Source: Bdellovibrionota bacterium (lineage in GTDB: Bacteria > Bdellovibrionota_C > UBA2361 > JAAYZI01). Taken from it: a stretch of DNA of 64,000 nt. The notes beneath the pieces were generated by a model. That model was given only the letters and a program-made list of their open reading frames with translations. It had not been told where the DNA came from and ran no database searches. Numbering within the stretch: position 1 is the first letter of the stretch; each line of letters opens with the position of its first letter. Shown here one piece after another: positions 30,910-61,466 of the stretch. The DNA lies in NCBI GenBank assembly GCA_050950765.1, contig JBMNIF010000001.1, forward strand, positions 140-64,139, read 5' to 3'. A program made the translations under genes and the position numbers.

Positions 30910-31379
30910 AAAAAGCCTTTTAGAAAAGAATTTACACGAGGTGTTTTTTAGTAAATAGATCGAAGCGGTGCAAGCAAAACTTCGAATATATGCAAGTATT
31001 TATCAAAAATACATAAAAATCAAATATTTATCTTGGTGGATCACAATCTTTTTAAATGTTGATTAGGGGGAGTGGTTATTAGAGTAGGGAGCCCTTAATT
31101 ATTTAAAGAAAAATTAAGGCATACGGTTTTTTAAAGGAAGTTGTAAAAATGATCGATGCGGAAAAAGATCTTGCAAAGATAAGGTCTGAAAAGTGCCAGC
31201 TAATCGTAGCAAAACTTCCGTTGCTGCTGATTATCACTTTAACAATGTGTTGCTTGATCGGTGTTTGTGGAAACTTGTTGTATACAGGAAAACTTTCAGA
31301 TCTAAACGCTTCATTTTTTATCACGGATGAGTCATATCACAACGTTGCTACTACCCTTTCCCGTATCAGATACTCCAAG

Positions 31380-31612
31380 TAATTTTTTCTACTACCACTC
31401 TTTTCTGTATCAGATACCCCAGATGTTTTTTTCTCACTAACTTTTTACGACAACAAAGTTGTTATTCAAATTTTTTCCTCACCGACTTTTTATGACAAAA
31501 AAATTGTCATCCCTTTTTTCCTCACCGACTTTTTCTGTATCAGATGCTTTAGGCGTTTTTTTCCACACCACATCTTTTCTGTATCAGATGTTTTTGTGTT
31601 GCTCTCTTTTCT
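31380..31612. repeat. tandem array (5 x ~43-45 bp) of the ACAAC/GTTGT repeat family, in reverse orientation relative to 7125-7345
   Basis: Units such as tttttacgacaacaaagttgttattcaaa are the reverse complement of the 7.2-kb units. Confidence 0.8.
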
Positions 31613-31666: not shown

Positions 31667-33010
31667 ATGTATGATGCGGGTATGATTATACTTGGACTTG
31701 GTAGCAATTTAGGAAAAAGAGAGGCGTTACTTAGAGAGGCGATTCGAAAAATCAATCACCTTAATGGCGTGCAGGTAAAAAGTGTTTCATTTTTATATGA
31801 ATCTGAAGCTATGTTACTGCCGGATGCTGATCCGTCGTGGAATAAGCCGTTTTTAAATTGTGCACTTTCGATAACTACAAAACTAACACCGCATGAACTT
31901 TTAAAAGGTGTTAAGGAGATTGAGTCTGAATTAGGTAGAGCTTTTAAAGTGGGGCAACGGTGGGCACCACGTCCGATAGATATCGATCTCTTACAGTGGG
32001 ATGATCTGCAGATAAATACGCCTGAATTAACGATTCCGCATATAGGTTTGTTAGAACGTCCCTTTGCGTTGTTACCGCTAGCAGATCTTTATGAGGGTGC
32101 AGGTGCTGTGACACCTCTCGGGAAAGAGCAGATTGAAAGGTGGAGAGGTGCTAAAGATGTGCCGTTTTCAACTGTGCGCAGAGGTTATCTTTATCCGTCG
32201 TGGGTTGGTATCTTAAATCTTACCCCTGATTCTTTTTCTGATGGTGGAGTGTGGCAAGATAGTGCTCTTGAACACGCTGAAGATCTTATTGCAGCGGGGG
32301 CTGATGTAATTGACATCGGTGCTGAATCAACTAGACCTAAGGCGAAGTTGATAACACCTGCTGAGGAGTGGAAGCGTTTAGAAAAGATCTTGCCCTTGCT
32401 GAATGAAAAGATACATAAAAAGGGCGCTATTGTTAGTATTGATACTTATCATCCAGAGACAGCAGAGCGGGCGATAGCGCTTGGTGTAGATTGGATCAAT
32501 GATGTTTCAGGACTTGTATCTGAAAAGATGTTGCAAGTTATTGCAGCAAGTGCTGACGTTAAGTATGTTTTGATGCACGCTCTTTCTGTGCCGCCCAGCT
32601 CGGATATAGTGCTAGCTGATGATGTAGATCTCTTCTCTGAAATATCTACTTTTTTTGAGGGAAAAATTGAAGCGCTGGAGAGGTGTGGCGTTTCGCGGGA
32701 GCGAGTTATCCTTGATCCAGGTTTGGGGTTTGGGAAAAGTGTTGCTCAAAATATGGATCTCGTCAGGCACGCTGAAAGATTACATCAATCTGGGCTTGGA
32801 TTGCCGCTTTTATATGGGCATTCAAGAAAACTATTTATTAAAGATGGTTTAAAATGTGCTACGAGAAATGAACTCGATATAGAGACTGCGGCGATCTCCT
32901 GTGAATTAGCTTTAAAAGGGATCGATTATATAAGGGTGCACGATGTGGCGTTAAATGCAGAAACGCTCCATCACTTCAGTGCTTGCAATAAAATTTGTCG
33001 TTATACCTAA
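31667..33010 (+). CDS. folKP: bifunctional HPPK (FolK) / dihydropteroate synthase (FolP)
   Basis: N-terminal HPPK motifs (LGLGSNLG, RWAPRPIDIDLL) fused to a DHPS pterin-binding domain (GILNLTPDSFSDGG, DIGAESTRP, LDPGLGFGK). Confidence 0.85.
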   Translation: MYDAGMIILGLGSNLGKREALLREAIRKINHLNGVQVKSVSFLYESEAMLLPDADPSWNKPFLNCALSITTKLTPHELLKGVKEIESELGRAFKVGQRWAPRPIDIDLLQWDDLQINTPELTIPHIGLLERPFALLPLADLYEGAGAVTPLGKEQIERWRGAKDVPFSTVRRGYLYPSWVGILNLTPDSFSDGGVWQDSALEHAEDLIAAGADVIDIGAESTRPKAKLITPAEEWKRLEKILPLLNEKIHKKGAIVSIDTYHPETAERAIALGVDWINDVSGLVSEKMLQVIAASADVKYVLMHALSVPPSSDIVLADDVDLFSEISTFFEGKIEALERCGVSRERVILDPGLGFGKSVAQNMDLVRHAERLHQSGLGLPLLYGHSRKLFIKDGLKCATRNELDIETAAISCELALKGIDYIRVHDVALNAETLHHFSACNKICRYT

Positions 33011-33039
33011 ATTTTAAGCACACTTTTTAAAAGCTTTTA

Positions 33040-33235
33040 GCTGAAGGTGGTGTCGTAGATATTTCTAAGAGCGCTTTTAAAAAACTTCTTCTTCTACACA
33101 GTGAAGAGAGATTATAATTTTGATTTTTTAGCGCAGACAGTTTTTTAAAAGCTTTTAGCTGGAGGTGGTGTCGTAGATATTTCTAAGAACGCTTTTAAAA
33201 AACTTCTTCTTATATTTCAAAGCCAAAAACTTCAA
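33040..33235. repeat. two ~70-bp direct repeats separated by ~45 bp
   Basis: Visible duplication downstream of folKP; the unit ttttaaaagcttttagctgaaggtggtgtcgtagatatttctaagagcgcttttaaaaaacttcttctt contains the TAAAAGCTTTTA palindrome. Confidence 0.75.
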
Positions 33236-33415
33236 AAAGTTCGGAAGTTAAGAATGGTGTGCTCTGTTTTAATATAGGTTTTGATATAGGTTTTTAATAT
33301 GGAAGGAGAGGAGGTTCACTTTAAATGGAGCCGACCTGTCTATTTTAACAATAGAACAAAGTCGGCTCCACGTAACGTCCTTTCCCGCTAGGTCCGTTAC
33401 TGTGTACGAATAACC

Positions 33416-33892
33416 TTAATTACGCACCGTGTCGCGCAGGACATATCCTTTGTAGTGCCGCTCGAAATCGGGGTCTCCGATACTTGTAATGATCGTAGCT
33501 TCTACTGTCGGATCGTCAAAGAGCGCAGCAAGTTTGCGCGGTAACTCCATCAGAGGCTTCGCTTGGAAATGGCGATACTCCTCATTAGAGTTGTAATCTT
33601 TCCACTCTCCTACGATAGAGTGCAACTTTGCGTACGCCGATTTCAGATCTTCAAGTGAAGAGCTTTCGATCAATTTAACCGCTTCTTCGAACAATGAAGG
33701 CTCTTCTTTTCCTCTGCCGTATATAACTAACGCTATTGCCAGAGGATCTAGAGGCTCTTTGCCTTCATAGTTTTGATGGATCGTTTCGAGTTTATAGTCG
33801 CCTTTTAAACGATTTGTCAGAAGATTTTTGGTAGGAAAGGGCCCCATGGACCAAGTCTTCTTGCCCTGCGGTCCTTCTGTGTCTTTGCTCAT
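33416..33892 (-). CDS. small hypothetical protein, paralog family member C
   Basis: 158 aa; shares blocks with the 34974-35453 ORF (LAIAL..GR..EEP; RKLAALFDDP vs HKLAAFYKDP; ERHY vs ERYRY). Confidence 0.55.
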   Translation of the reverse strand: MSKDTEGPQGKKTWSMGPFPTKNLLTNRLKGDYKLETIHQNYEGKEPLDPLAIALVIYGRGKEEPSLFEEAVKLIESSSLEDLKSAYAKLHSIVGEWKDYNSNEEYRHFQAKPLMELPRKLAALFDDPTVEATIITSIGDPDFERHYKGYVLRDTVRN

Positions 33893-33939
33893 ATCTGTTC
33901 TCCTATATGGCGAGGTGAAAATAAAAGCCGGAGAATACC

Positions 33940-34377
33940 TTAAGAGGTATTCTTCACATTAAGAGCCGCATTAAGACGGCGTCGAATGGTAACACCCTTT
34001 TGCAGCCAGCGGTAATGAGCAACTAGTGCTTGGTAGCACCTTGCCTGCTCTTCTTCCGATAATTCTGCAAGAATTTGAGCCGCTTCGGCTCTTAATTTGC
34101 GTAATTGAGAGTTAGAGAACTCTTTTGTTATGCAAATAATAGCCATCGCCAGTAGCGAAGAGTCAATTTCAGACGGTAAGATACCGTCTTCTACATATCT
34201 CCTTACGCTTTCCGGCAGGGGATATTTTCTCCGTAGTCGAGCGTAATACTCTGCGGTTCTTAAATCGTCTTCTAAGCGATCGCCTCTTGTCTTTCTAGGG
34301 ACGACAAGCCTCAACAGGATAATGTAAGACCCCCGTATAAGCAAATACCATACAGTGGGTTGCCTTTTTTTGCGCAT
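33940..34377 (-). CDS. basic hypothetical protein
   Basis: 145-aa ORF, Arg/Lys-rich, lying between the paralog cassettes. Confidence 0.4.
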   Translation of the reverse strand: MRKKRQPTVWYLLIRGSYIILLRLVVPRKTRGDRLEDDLRTAEYYARLRRKYPLPESVRRYVEDGILPSEIDSSLLAMAIICITKEFSNSQLRKLRAEAAQILAELSEEEQARCYQALVAHYRWLQKGVTIRRRLNAALNVKNTS

Positions 34378-34479
34378 ACTTAATTCCTCATTATATGCGA
34401 TGTTAATAAAACGGATAATTGGAAAAAAAGCCTAAACGGCATTCTCTCCAAACTAAAACCTCATAATGATATCGTCCTC

Positions 34480-34660
34480 TCGGATGGTATCGCGAGGAGA
34501 ACAGAGAAAAACCTTTATATTAAAGTGAACTTCCCCGTCCTGATCAGTTTTACTCATCAGGACAGGTAAGTTATCTCTTCTTCTGATAAAAAATATTTTT
34601 AAAGATCGGTCTAATTGTATACAACGATTGTACACGATAACTTTTGTGTTAATCAAATTG
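34480..34660 (-). promoter_or_regulatory. conserved structured 5' leader element (copy 2) with a promoter-like TTGATT-N18-TACAAT and a 10-bp stem hairpin
   Basis: About 85% identical to 35560-35724; hairpin ctgtcctgat/atcaggacgg. Confidence 0.45.
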
Positions 34661-34973
34661 TGTATTTTAGTCCTTATAACCGTAGCTTTTACTGTCCGCA
34701 ATCGCTTCAAGTAAAAACAGTAAAATATTACACTTATTTTGATTGTTTCCCTTAGAGGTGATGATTTAAGCGCGATACTTTTTTGCGTCTTCTTTTTTTT
34801 GAAATGGATGGGAGGGAGGTTCGCTTTAAATTAAGCGCCGATTCTGCTTTGGAAAACAGAGTCGGCGCTTATTAAACCGTATTACACCAAAAGCATTGCG
34901 CTAATAGTGTGCAACCTCAATCTCCCTAGCGAATCCCGCAAAGCCTGCAAAGGAATCTCCAAAGTCTCACTGT

Positions 34974-35453
34974 TCAAGGCGTCTTAGGCTTAGGGATATA
35001 CCTATACCGTTCAACCCTTTCCGTAAAATATTGATCGTCGACACCATTGACGATCTCATTTATCAGTTGCGGATCTTTGTAGAACGCGGCAAGTTTGTGT
35101 GGCATTAGCACCAGATTCTTCGAGTATGCATGATATGGGTTTTGCGGGTTATAAGCGCTCCAATTTGTGACACAACCCACAATTATAGCCACGCACGTCG
35201 ACACCGCCTCTTCTTTCGAGTGACGTTCGAGCATACTACACGCTTGTTTGTGCAGTGGATCATCGTGTTCTGCCATGACAAGCGCAGCTAACGCCAGTCC
35301 TAGAGAGTCGATTTTTTCCGGTCTAGAGTTGCGTTTGAGAAATCCCACAGCAGGATCCTCTGAGTTACCAGTGGGATAGTGTCCTATGGTTTTCCACGCC
35401 TGGTATCCGGTGTTGGCGTTCGTGGGCGTTTCGCCCGTTTTTCCCGTGTCCAT
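34974..35453 (-). CDS. small hypothetical protein, paralog family member A
   Basis: 159 aa; paralogous to 33416-33892; an aggag RBS lies upstream. Confidence 0.55.
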   Translation of the reverse strand: MDTGKTGETPTNANTGYQAWKTIGHYPTGNSEDPAVGFLKRNSRPEKIDSLGLALAALVMAEHDDPLHKQACSMLERHSKEEAVSTCVAIIVGCVTNWSAYNPQNPYHAYSKNLVLMPHKLAAFYKDPQLINEIVNGVDDQYFTERVERYRYIPKPKTP

Positions 35454-35559
35454 ATTATAGTCTCCTATATGGCATTGTGAAAATGAAGTAGAAACTAGAG
35501 AAAAACCTAATAGGCATCCTCTAAACTAAAAACCTCACAAAAATATTGCGAGGGGGGAT

Positions 35560-35724
35560 AGAGGACACTTTGATAAAAGAAACCCTTATATTTAAAGTGA
35601 ACTTCCCTGTCCCGATCAGCTTTACTCATCAGGGCAGGTAAGTTATCTCTTCTTCCGATTAAGTAATATTTTTAAAGATCGATACCATTCTATTAATTGT
35701 ATACTATTACTTTTGTTATTCAAA
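35560..35724 (-). promoter_or_regulatory. conserved structured 5' leader element (copy 1) with a near-consensus sigma-70 promoter TTGAAT-N16-TACAAT and a hairpin (ctgccctgat/atcgggacag)
   Basis: Minus-strand reading of 35697-35724 gives ttgaataacaaaagtaatagtatacaat; the hairpin and ~150 nt of flanking sequence are conserved with copy 2. Confidence 0.45.
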
Positions 35725-35805
35725 TTAAAAACGGCGCTCACCTACTTTTTTACATAAAAACGGAAAGGAGTTCCAAAAAAGAGCTTTTTATGAGATGCTT
35801 GGAGG

Positions 35806-37158
35806 ATGGAAAATATTAGAAATAAAAAGAATATTAGTATATTAGCCCTCTTTCTAGTCTCTATAAGTGTAGCTCTAGCTGCCTGCAATCTTTTTAAGCA
35901 AAAACAACGAAATGTTATAGTTATCTTAATTGATACCCTTAGAGCTGATCATTTGAGCATGAACGGCTACCAAAGAGAGACCTCTCCTGTAATTGATAAT
36001 TTTGCTGCGGAAAATCTGAATTTTAAGTGGGCGCTAGCACCTGCACCGTGGACACCTGCTTCGGTTGCCTCTCTCTTTACGGGGCTTTACCCTTCAGCGC
36101 ACGGGATGGTTCCACCTAATAGCCGCGATACTGCTATAAAACACTCGGTCAGGTTGCCATCTAAGTGGCAAACTATGGCGGAAACCTTTAAAAATAACGG
36201 TTATTATACAGCGGCGTTCTCTTCAAATCCGTGGATTCAAGAACTATTCGGTTTTACACAAGGCTTTGATCTCTTCGGCTATAAGGAGCGTGCAGAAGCT
36301 GCGGTATTGACGGCTAAGGCTAAAGAGATCGTTCAGAAATGGCGTGAGACAGAAAAAGAAAAACCACTTTTTATGTATCTGCACTATCTAGATCCGCACA
36401 ATCCGTACTCTCCGCCTGCTCCTTATAATACTAAGTTTTCCGGCACCGTAGAGGGACGGGTATATCCTAAAAAACAGCAGGAGTTTATCAATCAGTACGA
36501 TGGAGAAATTCTCTATACAGATACTGAAATAGGAAAACTTTTCTCGTTTTTGAAGGAAGAGGGCATATACGATGATGCCGTTATTATACTGCTCTCAGAT
36601 CACGGGGAACAATTTATGGAGCGAGGTCATCAGGGGCACGGTTTTGATCTCTATAATGAAGAGGTGCATGTGCCGCTAATCGTAAAAGCTAACGGTAAAA
36701 AGGGGACTGTCTCCGATTTTGTTAGTGCAATTGATATTTTTCCGACCATCATAGAGCTTCTTAAATTAAAAGATCCGCCTCCGTTTTTACAAGGCATCTC
36801 TCTTTTTAATTCAAAAGAGCTTTCAAAACGTGCAGGTGTTCTGTCTGAAATAAAACGTTTAAAAAATCAGAAAAGTCTAACCTTTAAAGATGGGAAAAAG
36901 GCTATCTTTGAATTTTCGATTGATGAGCCTTATCGAATGGATCTGCCACTACCGCACTCAAAGCAATTGATGTTTGATATATTTAATGATCCTATGGAAA
37001 GTTCTCCTTTATCAGATCCTACTTTAGCAGAAGAGAGAAAGGGGTCGTTCCTTGAAATTTATAAAGGTGTGCTTTCCTCTAAAGCTGATGAGAAGGATAG
37101 TCAGATTAAGATGGATGATAAAACAATTAAAGAGCTTAAGACTTTGGGGTATATGTAA
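35806..37158 (+). CDS. sulfatase (alkaline-phosphatase superfamily)
   Basis: VIVILIDTLRADHL metal-binding start, a signal peptide, and the LLSDHGEQFMERGHQGHG segment typical of sulfatase and phosphoglycerol-transferase-like enzymes. Confidence 0.75.
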   Translation: MENIRNKKNISILALFLVSISVALAACNLFKQKQRNVIVILIDTLRADHLSMNGYQRETSPVIDNFAAENLNFKWALAPAPWTPASVASLFTGLYPSAHGMVPPNSRDTAIKHSVRLPSKWQTMAETFKNNGYYTAAFSSNPWIQELFGFTQGFDLFGYKERAEAAVLTAKAKEIVQKWRETEKEKPLFMYLHYLDPHNPYSPPAPYNTKFSGTVEGRVYPKKQQEFINQYDGEILYTDTEIGKLFSFLKEEGIYDDAVIILLSDHGEQFMERGHQGHGFDLYNEEVHVPLIVKANGKKGTVSDFVSAIDIFPTIIELLKLKDPPPFLQGISLFNSKELSKRAGVLSEIKRLKNQKSLTFKDGKKAIFEFSIDEPYRMDLPLPHSKQLMFDIFNDPMESSPLSDPTLAEERKGSFLEIYKGVLSSKADEKDSQIKMDDKTIKELKTLGYM

Positions 37159-52948: not shown

Positions 52949-53009
52949 TACTTGAAAATACGATATACCTTCTTTAGGCTTCTTCGTTTTGAAAGTGAGA
53001 TGTGGTTTA

Positions 53010-54280
53010 TGAAAAAGTATTTGCCGAGAATTATAGATAAATTATTGCGTGAAAGATTAGAAGCTAAAGGGGCAGTTTTATTAGAAGGTCCTAAATGGTG
53101 CGGAAAGACTACGAGTGCTAAAGAGATAGCGGGTAGTTTTATATCAATGGATCAACCTGAAATGAGTGGGCAGTATCAATCTATGGCTGAACTCTCTCCA
53201 CTAACACTATTAGAAGGCAAGCCTCCGAGATTAATAGACGAGTGGCAGATAGCTCCAAACTTATGGAATGCCGTTAGATATGCTGTCGATGAAAGAGATG
53301 AATTTGGTCAATTCATTTTAACAGGCTCTGCCGTCCCTGCACAAATAGATGAGTCCATGCATACTGGCACGGGGAGAATTTCAAGACTTTATATGAGACC
53401 TATGAGCTTGTATGAGTCTAAGGATTCAAATGGCAAAGTTTCAATCGGAAACTTGTTTGCAAATAAGAAAATATCTACTAAAAGCGATACCGACTTAGAA
53501 GAAATAGCATTCCTAATTTGCAGGGGAGGCTGGCCAAAAGCGGTTGGTTTAGCCGAAAAGCAGGCTCTTTTTCAGGCAATAGATTATTTTGATGCCATCA
53601 TATCGACCGATATAAGTAGGGTAGATTCTGTGAAAAGAGATAAGGAAAAAGCAAAAAGATTTCTAAAATCTTATGCAAGAAATGTCGGAACTAGAGCTAC
53701 CCTAGAGACTATTAGACAAGATGTATTGTCTAATCATGCAGACACTTTCGACTCTGCTACGCTCTATTCATATAGAGATGCACTAACTAAAATCTTTGTT
53801 ATTGAAGATGCGCCAGCTTGGAATCCGAACTTGAGATCAAAGGTTGCTATTAGAACGACGGATGCAAGATATTTTGTTGACCCTTCAATCGCTGCAGCCG
53901 CTTTACAACTTGGTCCAAAAGATCTGTTAAACGATTTAAACACTTTTGGGCTTATCTTTGAAAATTTGTGTTTCCGTGATTTAAGAATATACGCAGACTA
54001 TCTAGATGGCGATGTCTATCAGTATAGAGATAGTAGTGGATTAGAATGCGATGCGGTAATTCACTTAAGAGACGGCTCTTATGGTCTAATTGAAATAAAA
54101 TTAGGAGGCGACACCTTAATTGAAGAAGGAGCAAAAAACTTACTAGACCTAGCCTCAAGGATAGATACAAACAAAATGAAAGAGCCTGCTTTTATGCTTA
54201 TTTTATGCGCCAAAGCTCCCTTTGCATATCAGAGAAAAGACGGGATTTGTGTGGTTCCTATAACTAGTTTAAAACCATAA
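53010..54280 (+). CDS. AAA+ ATPase with a DUF4143 C-terminal domain (COG1373-like), copy 1
   Basis: Walker A GPKWCGKTT and Walker B LIDEWQ; family-typical start MKKYLPRIIDKLL; start chosen at the internal Met at 53010. Confidence 0.7.
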
Positions 54281-54437
54281 ACCCCCCAAAAAAACTCCTC
54301 CTTAGTTTTAAGTGTAAAATTTCAATTATATAACTTATTGAAATAATTTATAAAAAGTTAAAAATCGATCCTTTAAGGTGATTGTAGCCCTTAAAAAACA
54401 TAGCATACGTAAAATAAGAAAAAAGTCTTAGAATTAG

Positions 54438-54570
54438 ATAAAAAATAAACTTCCGAAGGCAAGCCTTGCCAAAGACTGGAACAAAAACCTCACAAATACA
54501 GGAATGAAAAGTTCACAAAGACTGGAATGAAAACTCTACAAAGACTGGAATGAAAGCCCGTCAAACACTG
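54438..54570 (+). promoter_or_regulatory. conserved upstream element T2, copy 2
   Basis: Same palindrome and subrepeats as 52816-52948. Confidence 0.6.
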
Positions 54571-54804
54571 AAAGTTTCTAAAAAATTCTCTAAGCTTAAG
54601 CTTTGAAGCGATATCTCCCTTTTCATCATTTTAGGTTTTTTCTAAATATTTTTATATCAATCCCAGCTAGGTTCCTAACATACTGAAAAGATTAGATTGT
54701 TTTCTTTTGAAATTATAAAAAGACACTATCAAGTATCTTGCTTGCTACTACATTAGGTATATTTTAAGTAAAAATTACATAAACTTAGATAAAAAACTAA
54801 AATC

Positions 54805-54905
54805 TAACGGGATATAAATTAGAAATTTGACCGAATGAGAATTGGAAATTTGACCGATTATAAATTAAAAATTTGACCGAATAGGAATTGAAAATTTGAC
54901 CGATT
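54805..54905 (+). repeat. four iteron-like ~22-bp direct repeats (aaatttgaccgawt...)
   Basis: agaaatttgaccgaatg / gaaatttgaccgatta / aaaatttgaccgaatag / aaaatttgaccgattt, immediately upstream of the second DUF4143 ATPase. Confidence 0.7.
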
Positions 54906-54935
54906 TATGTTGTCTTTCTTTTTGGGAGATAAGTT

Positions 54936-56207
54936 ATGGATAGTCGATACTTGCCAAGATTAGTAGATAAATTAGTTGAGCTTAATTTAAAAGCCTTTGG
55001 GGCAATTTGTATTGAAGGTGCTAAATGGTGCGGGAAAACTTGGACATCAAGGTACCATTCTAAAAGTGCTATATATTTAGGAGACCCGAGCGAGAATTTT
55101 CAAAATAAAGAACTGATGCAATTAGCACCTAAAATAGCTTTAGATGGAGAAACTCCAAGATTAATAGACGAGTGGCAGGAACTCCCTTCTGTTTGGGATA
55201 CGGTAAGGCATGAAGTCGACAAGAGGGGGAAAAAAGGACAATTTATTTTAACAGGTTCATCAACACCAGTGCAAAAAGGTGTACTACATAGTGGAGCTGG
55301 AAGAATTTCTACTATTAGAATGAGACCCATGTCTTTATTTGAATCAAACGATTCATCTGGGCAAGTTTCTTTGCAGTCAATTTTTGATGGAACATTTGAA
55401 GCGGTAGCTCCCCCTAAAATCAATTTGCGGACGCTTATAGAGCTAACCGTTCGAGGTGGTTGGCCAGGTAGTTTAGGTTTGAGTTATGAAGAGTATAGTA
55501 TAATCCCTAAAGAATATATAAGTTCGATAATAAACCATGATATTTATAGATTAGAAGGAATCAATAGAAATTCAAAGAAGATGCATCGCTTATTAAAATC
55601 TCTTGCGAGAAATGAGTCGACAGTGGCTTCAATATCTACTTTAAGAGAGGATGTTAAAGAATATGAGAACGATGCTCTCGATAATGATACGATCTCGGCA
55701 TATTTAACTATATTTGAAAGATTGTTTTTAATCGATAATCAGAAAGCTTTTTCAAGTAATATAAGATCTGCAACTCGTATTAAGCAGGCAGATAAGAGAC
55801 ATTTTGTAGACCCCTCTTTAGCTATCGCCTTATTAGATGCAAGTTATGAAGACTTGTTAAACAATTTAAACGGATTTAGTTTTATGTTTGAGGCTCTTTG
55901 TGAGAGAGATTTAAGGATATATGCAGAAAGTTTAGGAGGTAAATTATATCATTATCAAGATTATAAGAACAGGGAAATCGATGCGATTGTAGAGTTAAAA
56001 GATGGTAGGCTTGGAGCTTTTGAAATTAAATTAGGGGTGGAGGCTGTTGATAATGCAGCAAAGTCGTTAATAGAAATAAGGGATGCTCTAAAAGCCGAAG
56101 GCTCTAACAGGCTAGATGTTTTAGTTGTAATCTCTGGTCTAAGTAATTTTGCCTATCGCAGGGAAGATGGGGTCTATGTCGTGCCGATTACAACGTTAAG
56201 ACCTTAA
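54936..56207 (+). CDS. AAA+ ATPase with a DUF4143 C-terminal domain, copy 2
   Basis: GAKWCGKTW Walker A and LIDEWQ Walker B; collinear with copy 1 but only moderately similar. Confidence 0.7.
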   Translation: MDSRYLPRLVDKLVELNLKAFGAICIEGAKWCGKTWTSRYHSKSAIYLGDPSENFQNKELMQLAPKIALDGETPRLIDEWQELPSVWDTVRHEVDKRGKKGQFILTGSSTPVQKGVLHSGAGRISTIRMRPMSLFESNDSSGQVSLQSIFDGTFEAVAPPKINLRTLIELTVRGGWPGSLGLSYEEYSIIPKEYISSIINHDIYRLEGINRNSKKMHRLLKSLARNESTVASISTLREDVKEYENDALDNDTISAYLTIFERLFLIDNQKAFSSNIRSATRIKQADKRHFVDPSLAIALLDASYEDLLNNLNGFSFMFEALCERDLRIYAESLGGKLYHYQDYKNREIDAIVELKDGRLGAFEIKLGVEAVDNAAKSLIEIRDALKAEGSNRLDVLVVISGLSNFAYRREDGVYVVPITTLRP

Positions 56208-56330
56208 AAGTAAAGTTTTTAATTTTTAAACTTTTTAGGTTATTGTGCTGCTTTAGCGTAAATTGGATATTTGAGGAGCTAAAAAACTACTCTAATAACT
56301 TGAGTGATATTAACTGATGGGGGTGAATAG

Positions 56331-56636
56331 ATGGAAAAATATTTTAGTGCAGAAGATAAAGTCAAGATACTCAAGGAGCATATGCTAGGTGAAGTGCCAG
56401 TATCGAACTTATGTGAAAAATACGGAATAAACGCTGATACATTTTATGAATGGCAAAATTTATTATTTGAAGGAGCCATTCAAAACTTTAAGCATAAAAA
56501 GCGAGGTTCAAAAAAAGCTAAGAAGCAAATTGAACGGATAGATACTTTGGAGAAGAAAATAGCGAAGAAAGATTCCGCGCTAAAGGAGCTGTTGAAACTT
56601 CACATAGATCTAAAGAAAAAGCTCGGAGAGTTCTAA
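56331..56636 (+). mobile_element. IS3-family transposase OrfA (HTH) remnant; no OrfB follows
   Basis: VKILKEHMLGEVPVSNLCEKYGINADTFYEWQ HTH and a leucine-zipper tail typical of IS3/IS911 OrfA; the next ORF is unrelated. Confidence 0.6.
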
Positions 56637-56793
56637 CAGATCATGAAGCTAAGCTGCAAATACGAGATAAGAGGTGATAGACTTTGTAGGTAAATGATAT
56701 AAGAGATCTGGTCAGAAGCAGGCTAAATGTGCTTTGCTTTTATTAAAGTGCAAATATAAACAAAAAGATGTTTTTATAAGAAAGGGAAGATCT

Positions 56794-58482
56794 ATGAAAA
56801 TTGCTTCGGTTAAAATAAAGAATTTTAGAAGCTATAAAGATGAGGTAACCGTTGATTTTGAAAATTTAACGGTATTTGTAGGGAAAAATGATTCTGGAAA
56901 ATCAACGATTTTAGAAGCACTAGATATATTTTTTAACGACGGAAAAGGGCTAGGCGTAACGAAGCTAGATGAAAACGATATAAATGTTGAGAACAAAAAA
57001 GCTGAAGATGGAGATAATGAGATCGAAATAACGGTCGTGTTTAAAGATTTGCCAGAAAAATTAATAATTGATGCCACCGTTGAAACTACTTTAGAAAAAG
57101 AGCATTTGTTAAATGGCGATAAATTAGAAATAATTAAAAGATATAAAAACGCAGGTACTCCGAAAATTTGGATTAGAGCTAATCACCCTACTAATCCTAA
57201 TTGTTCAGACTTATTATTAAAAAAACAAAATGAGTTAAAAAAAATTATTGAAGATAACAATATTGATTGCTCAGATCGGTCAGTTAACTCCGTGATGCGT
57301 GAAGCCATTTGGAAGCATTATGAAGATGATCTTAAATTAGATATTAAAGAAATAGATGTATCTAAGGAAGACGCAAAACAGATATGGGAAAAAATAAATG
57401 CTTGCTTACCAGCTTATTCATTATTTAAATCTGATAGACAAAATACCGATAGCGATTCTGAAGTGCAAGATCCGTTAAAAAATGCGGTAAATATGATTTT
57501 TAAAGAAGATAATATTATAAATAAATTAGATGAGATTGCTAAAGAAGTTAAAGAGCGATTAGAAGATGTATCTAGTAGGACATCAAAAAAGTTAGAAGAT
57601 TTTGATAAAAAAATAGCTGAAGAATTAAAGCCTGTGATACCACCAACAGACAAACTTGCTTGGAGTAGTGTATTTAAATCAGTTTCTATTTTTGGAGATA
57701 ATATTCCAATTAATAAAAGGGGAAGTGGTGTAAAAAGACTTATTTTATTAAGTTTCTTTAGAGCAGAGGCAGAAAGGCAAGCACAAGAAAATAAAAAAAC
57801 AAAAAATGGCGTTATATATGCCATAGAAGAACCTGAAACATCACAACATACAAATAATCAAAAAATTTTAATAGAAGCTTTAAAGAGTTTATCAGACAAA
57901 GAAAATATTCAAGTGATATTAACTACTCATAGTGCTTTTATAGTAAAACAGCTAGATAAACTAGATAGAGAAAAAGCCGCTAAAGATGGTGCAAAACAGC
58001 CAGATTTTTCAAATATAAGGATCGTAAATAAAAAAGAAGACAATAAAGGGAGAATTTCAAAAGTTGAAAAAAGTAGTCTTACATATCCATCATTAAACGA
58101 AGTTAATTTTTTGGCTTATGATGAGACTAGTATTGAATATCATAATGAGCTGTACGGGGCGTTGGAGTCTATGTATAGAGAATATAAGGAAAAGAAGGAA
58201 GATGAGAAAGAAAGAAGTTCCTTTAATAGTTGGTTAAAAAATGAATTAGAAGAGGCAAAGGTAAATGATGTTGAATTGGATAAGGATTACTTTAACGATT
58301 TGTGGAAAAAGCAGGAGAAGACTACTTTACCTACTTATATTAGACATATGATTCATCATCCTGAAAATAAAAAAAATGAAGAGTATACCCCAAATGAATT
58401 AAAAAGGTCGATTGAATTACTAAGAGAAGTTCTTAATATGCAGAAATTAAAAAACGATAAGGAAAGGAGGATCTGTAAATAA
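56794..58482 (+). CDS. stand-alone OLD / ABC-type (AAA_15/AAA_21-like) ATPase with an uncharacterised C-terminal domain
   Basis: N-terminal IKNFRSYKD...VFVGKNDSGKSTILEALD (Walker A), Walker B/D-loop IYAIEEPETSQH, H-loop LTTHSAFIV. The ~185-aa Lys/Glu-rich C-terminus has no Toprim motif that I can recognise. aagggaag RBS before the chosen start. Confidence 0.65.
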   Translation: MKIASVKIKNFRSYKDEVTVDFENLTVFVGKNDSGKSTILEALDIFFNDGKGLGVTKLDENDINVENKKAEDGDNEIEITVVFKDLPEKLIIDATVETTLEKEHLLNGDKLEIIKRYKNAGTPKIWIRANHPTNPNCSDLLLKKQNELKKIIEDNNIDCSDRSVNSVMREAIWKHYEDDLKLDIKEIDVSKEDAKQIWEKINACLPAYSLFKSDRQNTDSDSEVQDPLKNAVNMIFKEDNIINKLDEIAKEVKERLEDVSSRTSKKLEDFDKKIAEELKPVIPPTDKLAWSSVFKSVSIFGDNIPINKRGSGVKRLILLSFFRAEAERQAQENKKTKNGVIYAIEEPETSQHTNNQKILIEALKSLSDKENIQVILTTHSAFIVKQLDKLDREKAAKDGAKQPDFSNIRIVNKKEDNKGRISKVEKSSLTYPSLNEVNFLAYDETSIEYHNELYGALESMYREYKEKKEDEKERSSFNSWLKNELEEAKVNDVELDKDYFNDLWKKQEKTTLPTYIRHMIHHPENKKNEEYTPNELKRSIELLREVLNMQKLKNDKERRICK

Positions 58483-58669
58483 TTTTGTGTATTTTGCTAT
58501 TTCAGGACTGTGTTAACAGCTAAATTATATTTCTAAAGTAGTGATGTAGCTGAATCAAGTATCCACTAACATCAACCCTCCCCTCTAGGTTGATACCAAA
58601 AGCCCCTCTCTTCTTTATAGCTTATCATGTGGGGGCGTATTTGCCCCAGAAAATGGATTATAAGCCGCT

Positions 58670-58795
58670 GGAATCAATAAGTTAGCGCACGGTTTAGTTT
58701 ACGTACTGGTATGCCGATAATACCTCTTTTATGTTCTATATTATTCAGCAGAGATGCCTAGCCGGTATTATAAAACCGCACCTCTTCAGGTTGCT
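58670..58795. repeat. direct repeat T1, right copy
   Basis: See 52715-52815. Confidence 0.75.
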
Positions 58796-58888
58796 TTTTT
58801 AAGCGTTGAGAGATAGCGGCGGGGAATATTTAGTATGGCATGAGAAGTCTCTCTGAATATACAATCAACCTATTGTAAAAGGGAGGGT

Positions 58889-59479
58889 TTGGTGGACATT
58901 ACTCTGACTTTATGTCTCATTATTGTAATTTTGTTGGTAATTAAAATTTACAACAAACTTATACGTCTTCGGAATATTTGTAGAAATTCATTTTCACAAA
59001 TAGATGTACAACTAAAGAGGCGACACGATTTAATCCCTAATTTAGTTGAAGTTACAAAAGGCTACATGAAATATGAAAGAGAAACGTTCGAAGCCGTTAT
59101 TAAAGCACGGAATGAAGCAACTTCAGCTATAAAAGAGCTAAATTCAAAGCGGTTACTGAGTGCAAATGCTATGGCAGGGGTGGCAGGAGCTGAAAGCAAT
59201 TTAAACAACGCTTTATCGCAGCTGTTTGCGTTAGTAGAGGGGTATCCCGAACTTAAAGCAAATGAGGCGATGCAAAATTTAATGGAGGATCTACGCTCCA
59301 CCGAAAATAGAATCGCTTTTGCCAGACAGGTTTATAATGATGCTGTTATGAATTACAACACTAGGTGCGAACTCTTCCCTCATTTTTTTGTGGCGAAGCT
59401 ATTTAATTTTTCAACGGCTCCTCTCTTTGAATTAGATAATGAAAGTGAACGAGCAGCGATTAATCTTACCTTTTCATAA
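58889..59479 (+). CDS. lemA: LemA-family protein, copy 2
   Basis: Same conserved blocks as copy 1 (QLKRRHDLIPNLVEVTKGY, QLFALVEGYPELKAN); opposite orientation. Confidence 0.8.
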   Translation: MVDITLTLCLIIVILLVIKIYNKLIRLRNICRNSFSQIDVQLKRRHDLIPNLVEVTKGYMKYERETFEAVIKARNEATSAIKELNSKRLLSANAMAGVAGAESNLNNALSQLFALVEGYPELKANEAMQNLMEDLRSTENRIAFARQVYNDAVMNYNTRCELFPHFFVAKLFNFSTAPLFELDNESERAAINLTFS

Positions 59480-59621
59480 ATAATCTTTTTCTGATGATAT
59501 ACTAAAAAATGGATAAGCTTTTAAAATATCAAAAAAGAGTTAAAGGAGAGACTCTCGGCGCACTGCTCTTCTACATTATTGTAATAATAATCACGGCTTT
59601 TTGCTTACCTTTCTTCACCAT

Positions 59622-61466
59622 CCTAAATTCCCGTTTTTTTATAGTCTACACCTTAGTATTTAATATTTTATCGACAAAAATCTTCTGGTCAATTTCTAAT
59701 GCTTCTAAAATATCTTTTTGTTTTTTTGTTAATGGCTGTAGTAGCATGCTCAGATTTTCATTATCTATGCGTCTTATCATTTTAAGCGCTTCTAAAACTC
59801 TCTGAATGGTTTTTTCTACTTTTTTGTTATTATTATTTATAGTTCTTTGTAAGTCTGACCACATAATTAAGCTAAGAAAGGAGACGAAGCTTTTGCCGTC
59901 AGTAGTTTTTTCATTATGTGTTAGCATACGGTCATTATCCAATTCATTTTTTAAATTATCGAAAGCTTTCTCAATAAAGTCTCGTCGTGAATAGATATGA
60001 AGTGCTTCTTGTGGTGTCATTGTTGAGTGGTTACTCAAAAAAGCAAAAACTCCTAGCATAGATAAGATATCGGTAATTTTTTCATGATCCCTTTCAAAAC
60101 TTTCTAACTGCACTTCTTTCTTAGTTTTTATTTTGTAGTATTTAGAGTAGCGACTCATACTCATAGGCTTTTTCATTTCTTTTAGTTCATCTTCTAATCT
60201 GTCAATATGAGAGTAAAGAGTGCTCTCTTCCTCAGATGCACTTTTTGTATTTAAGTAAACGTAGAGAGAAAATTTTTCTCCATTTATCACAATATCTTTT
60301 CTTACCCCATAACAATTTGTCCCAGATATGTGATTCCTAGAAGAGCGAAGAGTAACAGATGCTTCCCTCATAGTATCGTTGTAATTTTTCTGAGATTTAG
60401 GAACAGCTACGAGAAATTCTATTTGCTCTTTTTTTATATATTCTAAATTTTCTTTTGTAATAAAACCTCTATCCAGAACATAAAATATATCATCAATACC
60501 TAAGCTTTTAGAGTATTCCATCATTGTTGTAAGAAAAACTTTATCAACAACACTTCCACTGTAAAGAAAAAAACTTATTGGTAAATTGCTGTCGGTAGCG
60601 TATAAAAGTCCGACATTTAGTTGTGGTAAATATTCTTTGTCTCTATTGTATCCATTCTCGGCAAGTGGCAAGTCTGCATAAGTAGAAAGGCTCGTAACAT
60701 CATAAGCTACAGTCTCATTGTTTTTCATAGCATGGTTTTTCCACACAGAAAAAAACTTCATTTGATCTTGTTTGGTAATCGATGAAAAAAGCTCACTTGT
60801 CTTTTGCGAGGATAGAGATATGTTTTTAGGGGTAAGAGTATTTTGCAAAAAATTATCTATATTCATCATTACATTGCCTTCGCAAGCCATGTATAACGCA
60901 GTATAAAAGATATCTTCGTATTTATCGGGAAAGATTGTTTTTAAGCATTTTAATAACCCTATAGCCTCAGCTCTCATTTTTAATGCGACTACGTGACCTG
61001 CGTCCCAAACAAAGCGAGAAGAAGCTAGATCAATAACGTCAGATGGCATTGGATAATATTTTCTAAAGTTCTCATTAGGAATCATTCTTCCTTGTCTATC
61101 AGGGTCTATCTTTCCCACAATCACTTCATCACAAGTAGGTGTGCCGTTCTTATTACGACGATGACCAAGTACGTGATACACATACTTTACGTTCCCTTTG
61201 TTATCTTTTTTATACGAAATCTTTTTTTCTGGAATTGGAATTGAAATATTTATTAAAGCCATTTTGCCTCCTATTTTTTACTGTCTCGTAGACTACGGAA
61301 GTATAGTCTACAAAGCAAAAGATGTCAATAGTTTTTTTAAAAAAATTAAAAAAACTTTTATAAAAAAACTTAATTAAATAAGTATGTTGGAGGAAATATA
61401 ATATTAGAAAATCTAAATATGAAATTAAATTATTGATATGGACTACATAAAAAACGGGAATTTAGG
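59622..61466 (-). mobile_element. insertion sequence (1845 bp) with 18-bp terminal inverted repeats (cctaaattcccgtttttt) and a 7-bp target-site duplication TCACCAT
   Basis: The left IR at 59622-59639 is the exact reverse complement of 61449-61466; tcaccat at 59615-59621 and 61467-61473; a single transposase ORF inside. Confidence 0.8.
59646..61262 (-). CDS. DDE transposase (IS4-superfamily-like, possibly IS1634-type)
   Basis: 538-aa ORF filling the IS; family assigned from general resemblance only. Confidence 0.55.
   Translation of the reverse strand: MALINISIPIPEKKISYKKDNKGNVKYVYHVLGHRRNKNGTPTCDEVIVGKIDPDRQGRMIPNENFRKYYPMPSDVIDLASSRFVWDAGHVVALKMRAEAIGLLKCLKTIFPDKYEDIFYTALYMACEGNVMMNIDNFLQNTLTPKNISLSSQKTSELFSSITKQDQMKFFSVWKNHAMKNNETVAYDVTSLSTYADLPLAENGYNRDKEYLPQLNVGLLYATDSNLPISFFLYSGSVVDKVFLTTMMEYSKSLGIDDIFYVLDRGFITKENLEYIKKEQIEFLVAVPKSQKNYNDTMREASVTLRSSRNHISGTNCYGVRKDIVINGEKFSLYVYLNTKSASEEESTLYSHIDRLEDELKEMKKPMSMSRYSKYYKIKTKKEVQLESFERDHEKITDILSMLGVFAFLSNHSTMTPQEALHIYSRRDFIEKAFDNLKNELDNDRMLTHNEKTTDGKSFVSFLSLIMWSDLQRTINNNNKKVEKTIQRVLEALKMIRRIDNENLSMLLQPLTKKQKDILEALEIDQKIFVDKILNTKV

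Follow-up and report, generated by a model that had tools for sequence, protein, structure and literature searches.

The subject of this analysis is a pair of related gene cassettes, and in particular the long structured leaders at their 5′ ends, in a 64,000-nucleotide (nt) stretch of a Bdellovibrionota contig, hereafter the window. The cassettes are located entirely on the minus strand, in the interval between two plus-strand genes, a folK-folP fusion (31667-33010) and a sulfatase (35806-37158). Cassette A runs from a promoter (TTGAAT-N16-TACAAT, 35696-35723) through a leader of ca. 236 nt (35454-35689) and the open reading frame (ORF) ORF159 (34974-35453), which codes for a small all-alpha orphan protein, to a GC-rich terminator-like hairpin with an 11/12-bp stem (34835-34868). 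Cassette B comprises a promoter (TTGATT-N18-TACAAT, 34627-34656), a leader of ca. 244 nt (34378-34621), ORF145 (33940-34377), a 47-nt spacer with its own ribosome-binding site (RBS; 33893-33939), ORF158 (33416-33892) and a hairpin with a perfect 9-bp GC-rich outer stem (33327-33369). The leaders, which we infer to be transcribed as 5′ untranslated regions (UTRs), were folded and aligned with each other. An earlier note on this DNA had placed leader B directly in front of the paralog of ORF159; it overlooked the 145-residue ORF145, a fast-evolving extra gene of cassette B (34377-33940) that sits between the two.

ORF159 and ORF158 are indeed distant paralogs (26% identity, E 6e-13), and the likeness of their 5′ regions described in that note is equally real. 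The promoter-plus-leader regions 35466-35726 and 34392-34659 are 73% identical over 274 nt (E 5e-38), with ca. 80% identity from the -35 box through the hairpin and 93-94% in the core, and a 35-nt core motif is present in exactly two copies in the 64 kb, with none expected. Homology is also found between the proximal UTR with its RBS in front of ORF159 and the spacer in front of ORF158 (TTTTCAC..GCCATATAGGAGA; 69% over 77 nt), and between the downstream regions 34796-34866 and 33291-33366 (68% over 76 nt, E 0.001), whose hairpins, correctly predicted to follow each cassette, are both terminator-like with weak U-tails. The RBS proposed for both leaders, AGGAG, precedes ORF159, whereas that of leader B reads GAGGA. 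The duplicated unit extends further upstream than previously described, as the 107 nt upstream of promoter B (34665-34771, plus strand) are 75% identical to the first sulfatase codons (35852-35958, E 4.5e-16) and represent a decayed copy of the sulfatase 5′ end, left as a scar of the duplication. The homologous promoters and leaders, proximal UTRs and terminators together with this scar therefore indicate an old tandem duplication of a unit of ca. 1.2 kb that began within the sulfatase 5′ end and included the terminator. ORF145 was either gained later in B or lost from A. It is possibly a third, very diverged paralog: BLASTP against the ORF159/ORF158 family is negative, and hhalign yields a probability of 67% with E 5e-5 over 57 columns.

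The conservation between the two leaders is arranged in blocks. Identity between A and B amounts to 69% from the -35 to the -10 hexamer, drops to 44% in the start region, reaches 94% in the block of CGATCTTTAAAAATATT, 77% in the subsequent linker and 93% in a 57-nt hairpin termed P1, and falls to 42% in the following 48 nt; further downstream it is 68% in a block (A/G)AUAU..UGAGGUU with a U-run, 70% in a hairpin termed P3 and 44% from P3 to the RBS. In the 5′ block and P1 combined, 70 of 75 positions match between A and B, compared with 41 of 96 in the spacers (Fisher p = 6e-13). Because the spacers are near saturation, the duplication must be old and the core under purifying selection. The claim that the leader is more than a bare promoter is thus borne out by blocks of 93-94% identity beside saturated spacers of 42-44%. 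Copy B retains the element although its sulfatase copy has decayed, and the constraint is therefore tied to the minus-strand genes and not to the regulation of the sulfatase. Nor does it act on a peptide. An ORF starting inside the hairpin (MSKADRD...) loses its frame in two of four variants, through one inserted nucleotide in L001 and one deleted nucleotide in L003, by which a leader peptide or upstream ORF is rejected. These strain variants, as well as L005 discussed below, are short contigs from other samples, which were compared with the window. The organism is known to occur in the JGI samples 3300062814 and 3300049695 and in SRR31066156, SRR27710307, SRR24902087, SRR25844767 and SRR24902083.

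Both promoters were found by a consensus scan. The match to the consensus is by itself not significant, since nine sites were detected versus 5.9 +/- 2.5 in shuffled sequences; the two sites gain their credibility from the conservation of both hexamers amid otherwise diverged surroundings. A good sigma-70 promoter of the form TTGAAT-N16-TACAAT had been announced for each cassette, and this description fits A, while B differs in its -35 hexamer and in its spacing of 18 nt. The transcription start sites (TSSs) would lie accordingly at the upstream ends of the leaders given above. A sigma-28 reading of the CGAT block was rejected by sequence inspection, as its -35 element does not fit in copy B. 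The best sigma-70 match of the region is yet another site, TTCACA-N16-TATAAT (11/12) at 35454-35481, which extends across the RBS up to the base preceding the ORF159 start codon. This site cannot serve ORF159 and probably arose by chance, although an internal or leaderless transcript could originate from it.

Folding of the leaders yields minimum free energies (MFEs) of -65 kcal/mol for A and -69 kcal/mol for B, corresponding to z values of -3.19 and -4.79 relative to dinucleotide shuffles. RNAalifold, applied to four sequences (A and B of the window, A of L001 and B of L003), revealed three shared elements. P1 (35594-35650 in A, 34522-34578 in B) is an interrupted hairpin of 21 pairs (AGAG/AACU/CCUG/CCUGAU/AGU ...). 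P0 is a long-range helix in which the 17-nt block CGATCTTTAAAAATATT, identical in all four leader sequences (35665-35681 in A; 34608-34592 in B), pairs with a conserved GAGGUU block (35531-35547 and 34473-34457, respectively). P3 (35496-35523 and 34450-34420) corresponds to helix 5 of the RNAalifold model. Between them lies a less uniform element, P2. In A, a terminator scan and local folding identify it as a terminator-like hairpin, CCTCGCAA/TTGTGAGG, followed by a U-run (P2A, 35523-35553), which overlaps the P0 3′ strand (35547-35531); the corresponding P2B is found at 34502-34474. The invariant 5′ block has, in addition, a second and proximal partner, UAA(A/G)GGUU, in three of four variants, which is shortened in L003B.

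The 10-bp stems reported in the earlier note exist and constitute the apical part of the longer, 57-nt interrupted P1 hairpin (35650-35594 in A, 34578-34522 in B). The stability of P1 ranges from -24 to -32 kcal/mol among the variants. In copy A it amounts to -24 kcal/mol for the sense and -20.4 kcal/mol for the antisense fold, and that of P3 to -10.4 and -4.9 kcal/mol, respectively; P1 and P3 are more stable in sense than in antisense orientation in all eight variants tested, which fits a structure used in the sense transcript. The four differences between A and B within P1, three exchanges of U:G and U:A and one C.A mismatch replaced by U:A, are all compatible with pairing. In L001 a G to C exchange together with a 1-nt insertion generates a perfect 10-bp apical stem, by which the energy drops from -24 to -32 kcal/mol. 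Pairing is maintained or strengthened by each substitution and indel in P1, and 99.5% of the cells are paired compared with 43-61% when the partners are slid against each other. The contention that the changes maintain or restore the stem is correct in this sense, but true compensatory covariation is seen neither in P1 nor in P0, where all changes in the four sequences are one-sided; two-sided changes affect two pairs, both in minor helices, and P3 displays three one-sided pair changes and one two-sided change. On the basis of these models an orientation-specific structure of the leader is plausible, if unproven.

The coding sequences (CDSs) behave quite differently from the leaders. Relative to the window, the strain variants diverge at the nucleotide level by 0.9% in the sulfatase, 1.8-2.2% in the leaders and 0% in the spacer between ORF145 and ORF158, but by 7.3% in ORF159, 4.6% in ORF158 and 18% in ORF145; the non-coding frame as a whole is 0-2.8% diverged between strains (97-100% identical). 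Nearly all changes in the small ORFs alter the protein. Nonsynonymous and synonymous codons number 28 and 3 in ORF159 (versus L001; ratio of nonsynonymous to synonymous rates, dN/dS, 3.07), 19 and 1 in ORF158 (versus L003; dN/dS 1.41), and 47 and 2, plus in-frame indels, in ORF145 (versus L003; dN/dS 5.65), while the sulfatase has 2 and 3 (dN/dS 0.19). At 0.03-0.05, the synonymous rate (dS) of the small ORFs is similar in magnitude to the background of 0.024 in the sulfatase. When the three ORFs are pooled, the shortage of synonymous changes is significant (binomial p = 7e-5), and dN/dS significantly exceeds 1 for two of the three ORFs and for the pool. Moreover, alleles are apparently replaced. 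The JGI contig L005 matches the window at 97-100% identity across leader, spacer and 3′ UTR, whereas its ORF158 allele (P0004) shares ca. 50% nucleotide and 35% protein identity with that of the window (dS 0.87), with sharp boundaries of divergence ca. 40 nt inside each ORF end; ORF145 is a mosaic among three strains. In JGI sample 3300049695 a window-type cassette B (L065, 100% identical) occurs together with the diverged L005 allele and, therefore, deeply diverged alleles co-exist in one community. Judged from these comparisons, the small ORFs are under strong diversifying selection combined with allele replacement and the non-coding frame is under purifying selection. The contrast between leader and CDS thus has two sources, the constraint on the leader core and the diversification and replacement of the CDSs. 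Accordingly, the use of this contrast as a sign of regulation is justified as far as the core is concerned, yet much of the contrast stems from abnormally fast CDSs.

The encoded proteins offer few hints to their function. No family of Pfam, NCBIfam, PHROG or PADLOC matches them, and searches of 5.8 billion proteins and 1.84 billion representatives returned just three clusters of the ORF159/ORF158 family. The proteins are predicted to be all-alpha with disordered N-termini and a TPR-like hairpin that gives weak matches to TPR-repeat proteins. The AlphaFold2 model of ORF159 is all helical (predicted local distance difference test score, pLDDT, 70) and has no structural match in the PDB or BFVD. 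The NCBI annotation of ORF159 starts at an internal Met and comprises 100 residues (P0002, ACOX2O_00195). The 159-residue reading is better supported by the AGGAG RBS, an N-terminus homologous to that of ORF158 and an agreeing JGI call. The pattern of selection suggests a role in an arms race, as effector, immunity or recognition protein.

Searches for further copies of the leader all point to a narrow distribution. At gathering thresholds Rfam detected tRNA alone in the whole window; in E-value mode (E <=10) the region 32500-36500 gave chance miRNA-like matches to the terminator hairpins and no relevant family, the match to the pan motif reaching 19.4 bits (E 6.1), below its gathering score of 36.2. 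The comparison with Rfam proposed in the earlier note therefore links the leaders to no family. A hammerhead ribozyme, suggested by CUGAUGAG in P1, would have CUGANGA and GAAA cores on either side of stem II and a three-way junction; it was rejected on account of an incomplete core, with GAUC instead of GAAA after stem II, and the window contains no Rfam match to it. An exact-pattern scan with the P1 core produced 0 matches in GTDB representative genomes, JGI metagenome contigs and IMG/VR; that with the proximal UTR likewise produced 0 in JGI metagenomes and IMG/VR, although the JGI set evidently lacks L005, which carries the pattern. Additional copies expected from a covariance model did not appear either. 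The model R1, built from the P0 5′ block and P1 and run with filters off, recovered the two copies and their antisense images in the 64-kb window and gave no match in 27 related Bdellovibrionota sulfatase loci. In the nearest GTDB genomes the sulfatase homologs are 41-48% identical and synteny is absent, with folKP, Hda and the small ORFs all missing near the related sulfatase genes. On these grounds the element appears to be confined to one species-level lineage.

Based on the conservation, folding and distribution of the leaders, we consider them to be a lineage-specific, cis-acting structured 5′ UTR common to the paralogous cassettes and conferring common post-transcriptional control, an interpretation to which we give an even chance. 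In this scenario the 17-nt block, P1 and P3 would act in cis on the mRNA as a shared control or stability module, most likely by being recognized by a trans-acting protein or small RNA (sRNA), or else by stabilizing the mRNA. The paralogous genes would thereby be regulated alike, whatever protein they encode. Of the regulatory classes named in the earlier note, cis-regulatory RNA, riboswitch, attenuator and sRNA, the general notion of a selected and folded leader is retained, whereas a riboswitch is unlikely and the attenuator hairpin is present in A only. Several points weigh against the proposed control. Both the trans-acting factor and the regulatory output are hypothetical, and the TSSs are deduced from promoters matching the consensus at only 9/12 positions. 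The comparison comprises two paralogous copies and two or three strain variants, and the structure was derived from the same sequences by which the pairing was judged; no P1 or P0 pair has changed on both sides and the column-shuffle control was uninformative (125/500). The P0 duplexes are weak (-4.9 to -9.1 kcal/mol, the latter value for A) and compete with other pairings, P2 differs between A and B, and L005 has lost one P3 pair. At the DNA level, moreover, P1 forms a palindrome and is as such compatible with a DNA-binding site. Finally, a single gene-conversion tract of ca. 90 nt could mimic the conservation of the core.

This last point leads to a first alternative, according to which there is no dedicated function but a promoter with an ordinary UTR, whose conservation is feigned by fast CDSs and a recent gene conversion of ca. 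90 nt. The CDSs do evolve faster than neutral, the conserved core of P0 5′ block, linker and P1 is contiguous and ca. 90 nt long, and one linker position of L003B carries the A-type base. However, the core is flanked by saturated sequence of 42-44% identity that provides little homology to initiate conversion, and the bases in P1 that distinguish A from B are kept in both strains, which excludes a recent conversion. Other conserved islands (P0 3′ strand, P3 and proximal UTR) are separate from the core, and the changes in P1 invariably preserve pairing; we thus regard this explanation as unlikely. A similarly low probability is assigned to the view that P1 and the invariant block work as DNA, by binding a transcription factor (as roadblock or operator) or a recombinase. 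In B (TCCTGAT/ATCAGGA) and L001 (CCCTGATGAG/CTCATCAGGG) the DNA of the P1 apex is perfectly palindromic, and the loops and bulges are as well conserved as the stems, which fits sequence-specific recognition. On the other hand, the differences between A and B are exchanges of G and A opposite U, which pair in the sense RNA alone and would be A.C mismatches on the other strand, and the antisense folds are consistently weaker. The site, at ca. +40 to +100 from the inferred start, would be atypical of an operator, the scanned window ORFs of >=150 amino acids yielded no recombinase, integrase or reverse transcriptase, and the breakpoints of the replaced allele fall inside the ORF and not in the leader.

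The remaining alternatives accept a functional RNA but differ in its mode of action. The leader might give rise to an independent sRNA or serve as an attenuator, with a structured RNA of ca. 165-170 nt (P0/P1/P2) ending at the U-rich tract after GAGG and the ORFs expressed by read-through, the level of which would be set by the competition of P0 pairing by the invariant 5′ block with the P2 hairpin. Leader A supplies the appropriate parts, namely a terminator-like hairpin CCUCGCAA/UUGUGAGG followed by UUUUUAGUUU and an overlap of P2A with the P0 3′ strand that renders the two structures mutually exclusive; in addition, the block (A/G)UGAGGUU(U/C)U is kept in all variants and the A/G variation in the proximal partner UAA(A/G)GGUU retains pairing with the invariant block. 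Leader B does not conform to this scheme, as its P2 hairpin is located 15 nt from the U-run and forms no canonical terminator. Together with the different MFE structures of A and B, the weakening of the U-run to UUCUU in L001 and the low stability of the P0 duplexes, this speaks against the sRNA or attenuator, which we consider improbable. A riboswitch that senses a metabolite and controls the downstream genes would account for a long, structured and conserved leader with a possible expression platform in copy A, but it is very improbable: apart from chance matches Rfam provides no candidate at E <=10, what is conserved amounts essentially to a single long, interrupted hairpin and the 17-nt block, with no multi-helix junction, the 0 matches in GTDB genomes, JGI metagenomes, IMG/VR and the 27 related loci restrict it to one species-level lineage, and the downstream genes are hypervariable, non-enzymatic orphans, not metabolic ones. 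In a more speculative scenario, which we deem quite improbable, the conserved frame accommodates a variable payload. The promoter, leader and terminator modules would then regulate every payload alike and at the same time be homology arms by which co-existing strains swap deeply diverged alleles, and P1 would dock a dedicated regulator. The payloads would be effector- or immunity-like proteins in an arms race, and the P1 regulator would couple their translation to prey or host contact or to type-III export. If true, an uncultured Bdellovibrionota lineage would possess a variation cassette of a new kind that operates at the population level.

The surroundings of the cassettes contain several further features. 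Between the folKP stop and terminator B (33024-33214) a 73-nt AT-rich element is present twice, 118 nt apart and 96% identical; it has no further copy in the window and an ordinary fold (z -1.2). A short tandem repeat, GTTTTAATATAG x 2.8, follows just downstream of terminator B (33266-33300), and the region upstream of folKP (31357-31610) is densely filled with direct repeats of 24-59 nt (TTTTCTGTATCAGAT..., TTTTTTCCTCACCGACTTTTT...). At 16113-21501 the window encodes a type-III-export-like cluster with a FliA/WhiG-like sigma factor, an SctJ/YscJ-like lipoprotein, an FHIPEP protein, for which the SctV and FlhA scores are about equal and both below cutoff, and a TPR protein. The type-III-export-like genes are followed by an FHA protein and two sigma factors of the extracytoplasmic function (ECF) type; FliG is encoded at 5070-6071. 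A search of the literature on Bdellovibrionota and type III secretion yielded nothing pertinent. Two paralogous AAA_14/DUF4143 ATPases, an AAA_15 (AbiEii-like/OLD-type) ATPase and a DDE transposase at 52952-61262 may form a small defence or mobile island unrelated to the leader cassettes.

Should the leader prove to be a working regulatory RNA, it would contribute a lineage-specific cis-element from a little-studied phylum and illustrate how duplicated genes can keep the same regulation while their proteins diverge past easy recognition. Being a two-copy element of a single species, it is at present of modest general importance, and the plausible but thinly supported RNA claim is less notable than the signature of selection on the ORFs. 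The locus probably represents an arms-race interface (effector, immunity or self/non-self) of an uncultured predator-like bacterium and offers a compact target for experiments and for population metagenomics.

Several known systems share part of this architecture. Type III toxin-antitoxin systems of the ToxIN type carry tandem direct repeats of an antitoxin RNA upstream of the toxin gene. The cassettes resemble them in the succession of promoter, non-coding RNA, terminator-like hairpin and an ORF of ca. 160 residues, but their proteins are all-alpha with no PADLOC or Pfam match, and this assignment was rejected, as Tandem Repeats Finder (TRF) and a repeat search detected no tandem repeat in either leader. 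Hypervariable CDSs in constant flanks, a hairpin after each cassette and a repeated intergenic sequence between small orphan genes are also reminiscent of the targets of diversity-generating retroelements (DGRs) and of integron or rAID-type arrays. DGRs combine a reverse transcriptase with a template repeat ca. 90% identical to the variable region; they were rejected, since no ORF segment has a second copy in 64 kb and no reverse transcriptase is present among the scanned ORFs, and, unlike in DGR targets, the variation extends across entire ORFs, with indels and one saturated allele among the changes. Integron arrays possess an adjacent tyrosine-recombinase integrase and promoterless cassettes ending in attC sites, and were rejected because no integrase occurs among the scanned ORFs of >=150 amino acids and each cassette has its own promoter; more generally, no integrase or recombinase was found near the cassettes among these ORFs. 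Like the riboswitches and attenuators of Rfam, the leaders are long and contain stable helices as well as alternative pairings, and leader A has a terminator-like hairpin ahead of its ORF. They differ in having no conserved multi-stem aptamer, a terminator that is not conserved in B, non-metabolic genes and a distribution over one lineage.

Closer parallels are provided by two other groups. The vlp/vsp surface-antigen families of Mycoplasma combine a conserved 5′ non-coding region with a divergent coding body, and the cassettes match them in their near-identical promoter and leader, in CDSs under diversifying selection and in alleles that are very different between strains. In contrast to vlp/vsp, they number only two, lack a signal peptide or lipobox as well as a homopolymer or phase-variation tract in the promoter, and code for predicted cytoplasmic all-alpha proteins. 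Structured 5′ UTR leaders bound by proteins are exemplified by the hag flagellin leader, a target of CsrA, and by the yop mRNA leaders, bound by YopD/LcrH. Regulation by CsrA itself was rejected, as the window contains no csrA-like ORF and the GGA motifs of A and B do not occupy corresponding positions; binding would be conjectural, and homology to any described leader is absent. The resemblance to both leader types nevertheless includes a long hairpin leader with GGA motifs, one of them at the Shine-Dalgarno sequence, a single leader common to several co-regulated genes and, here, a type-III-export gene cluster ca. 12 kb away. By analogy, and while belonging to no described family, the leader thus appears to resemble the structured leaders of bacterial mRNAs that are controlled by proteins or sRNAs.

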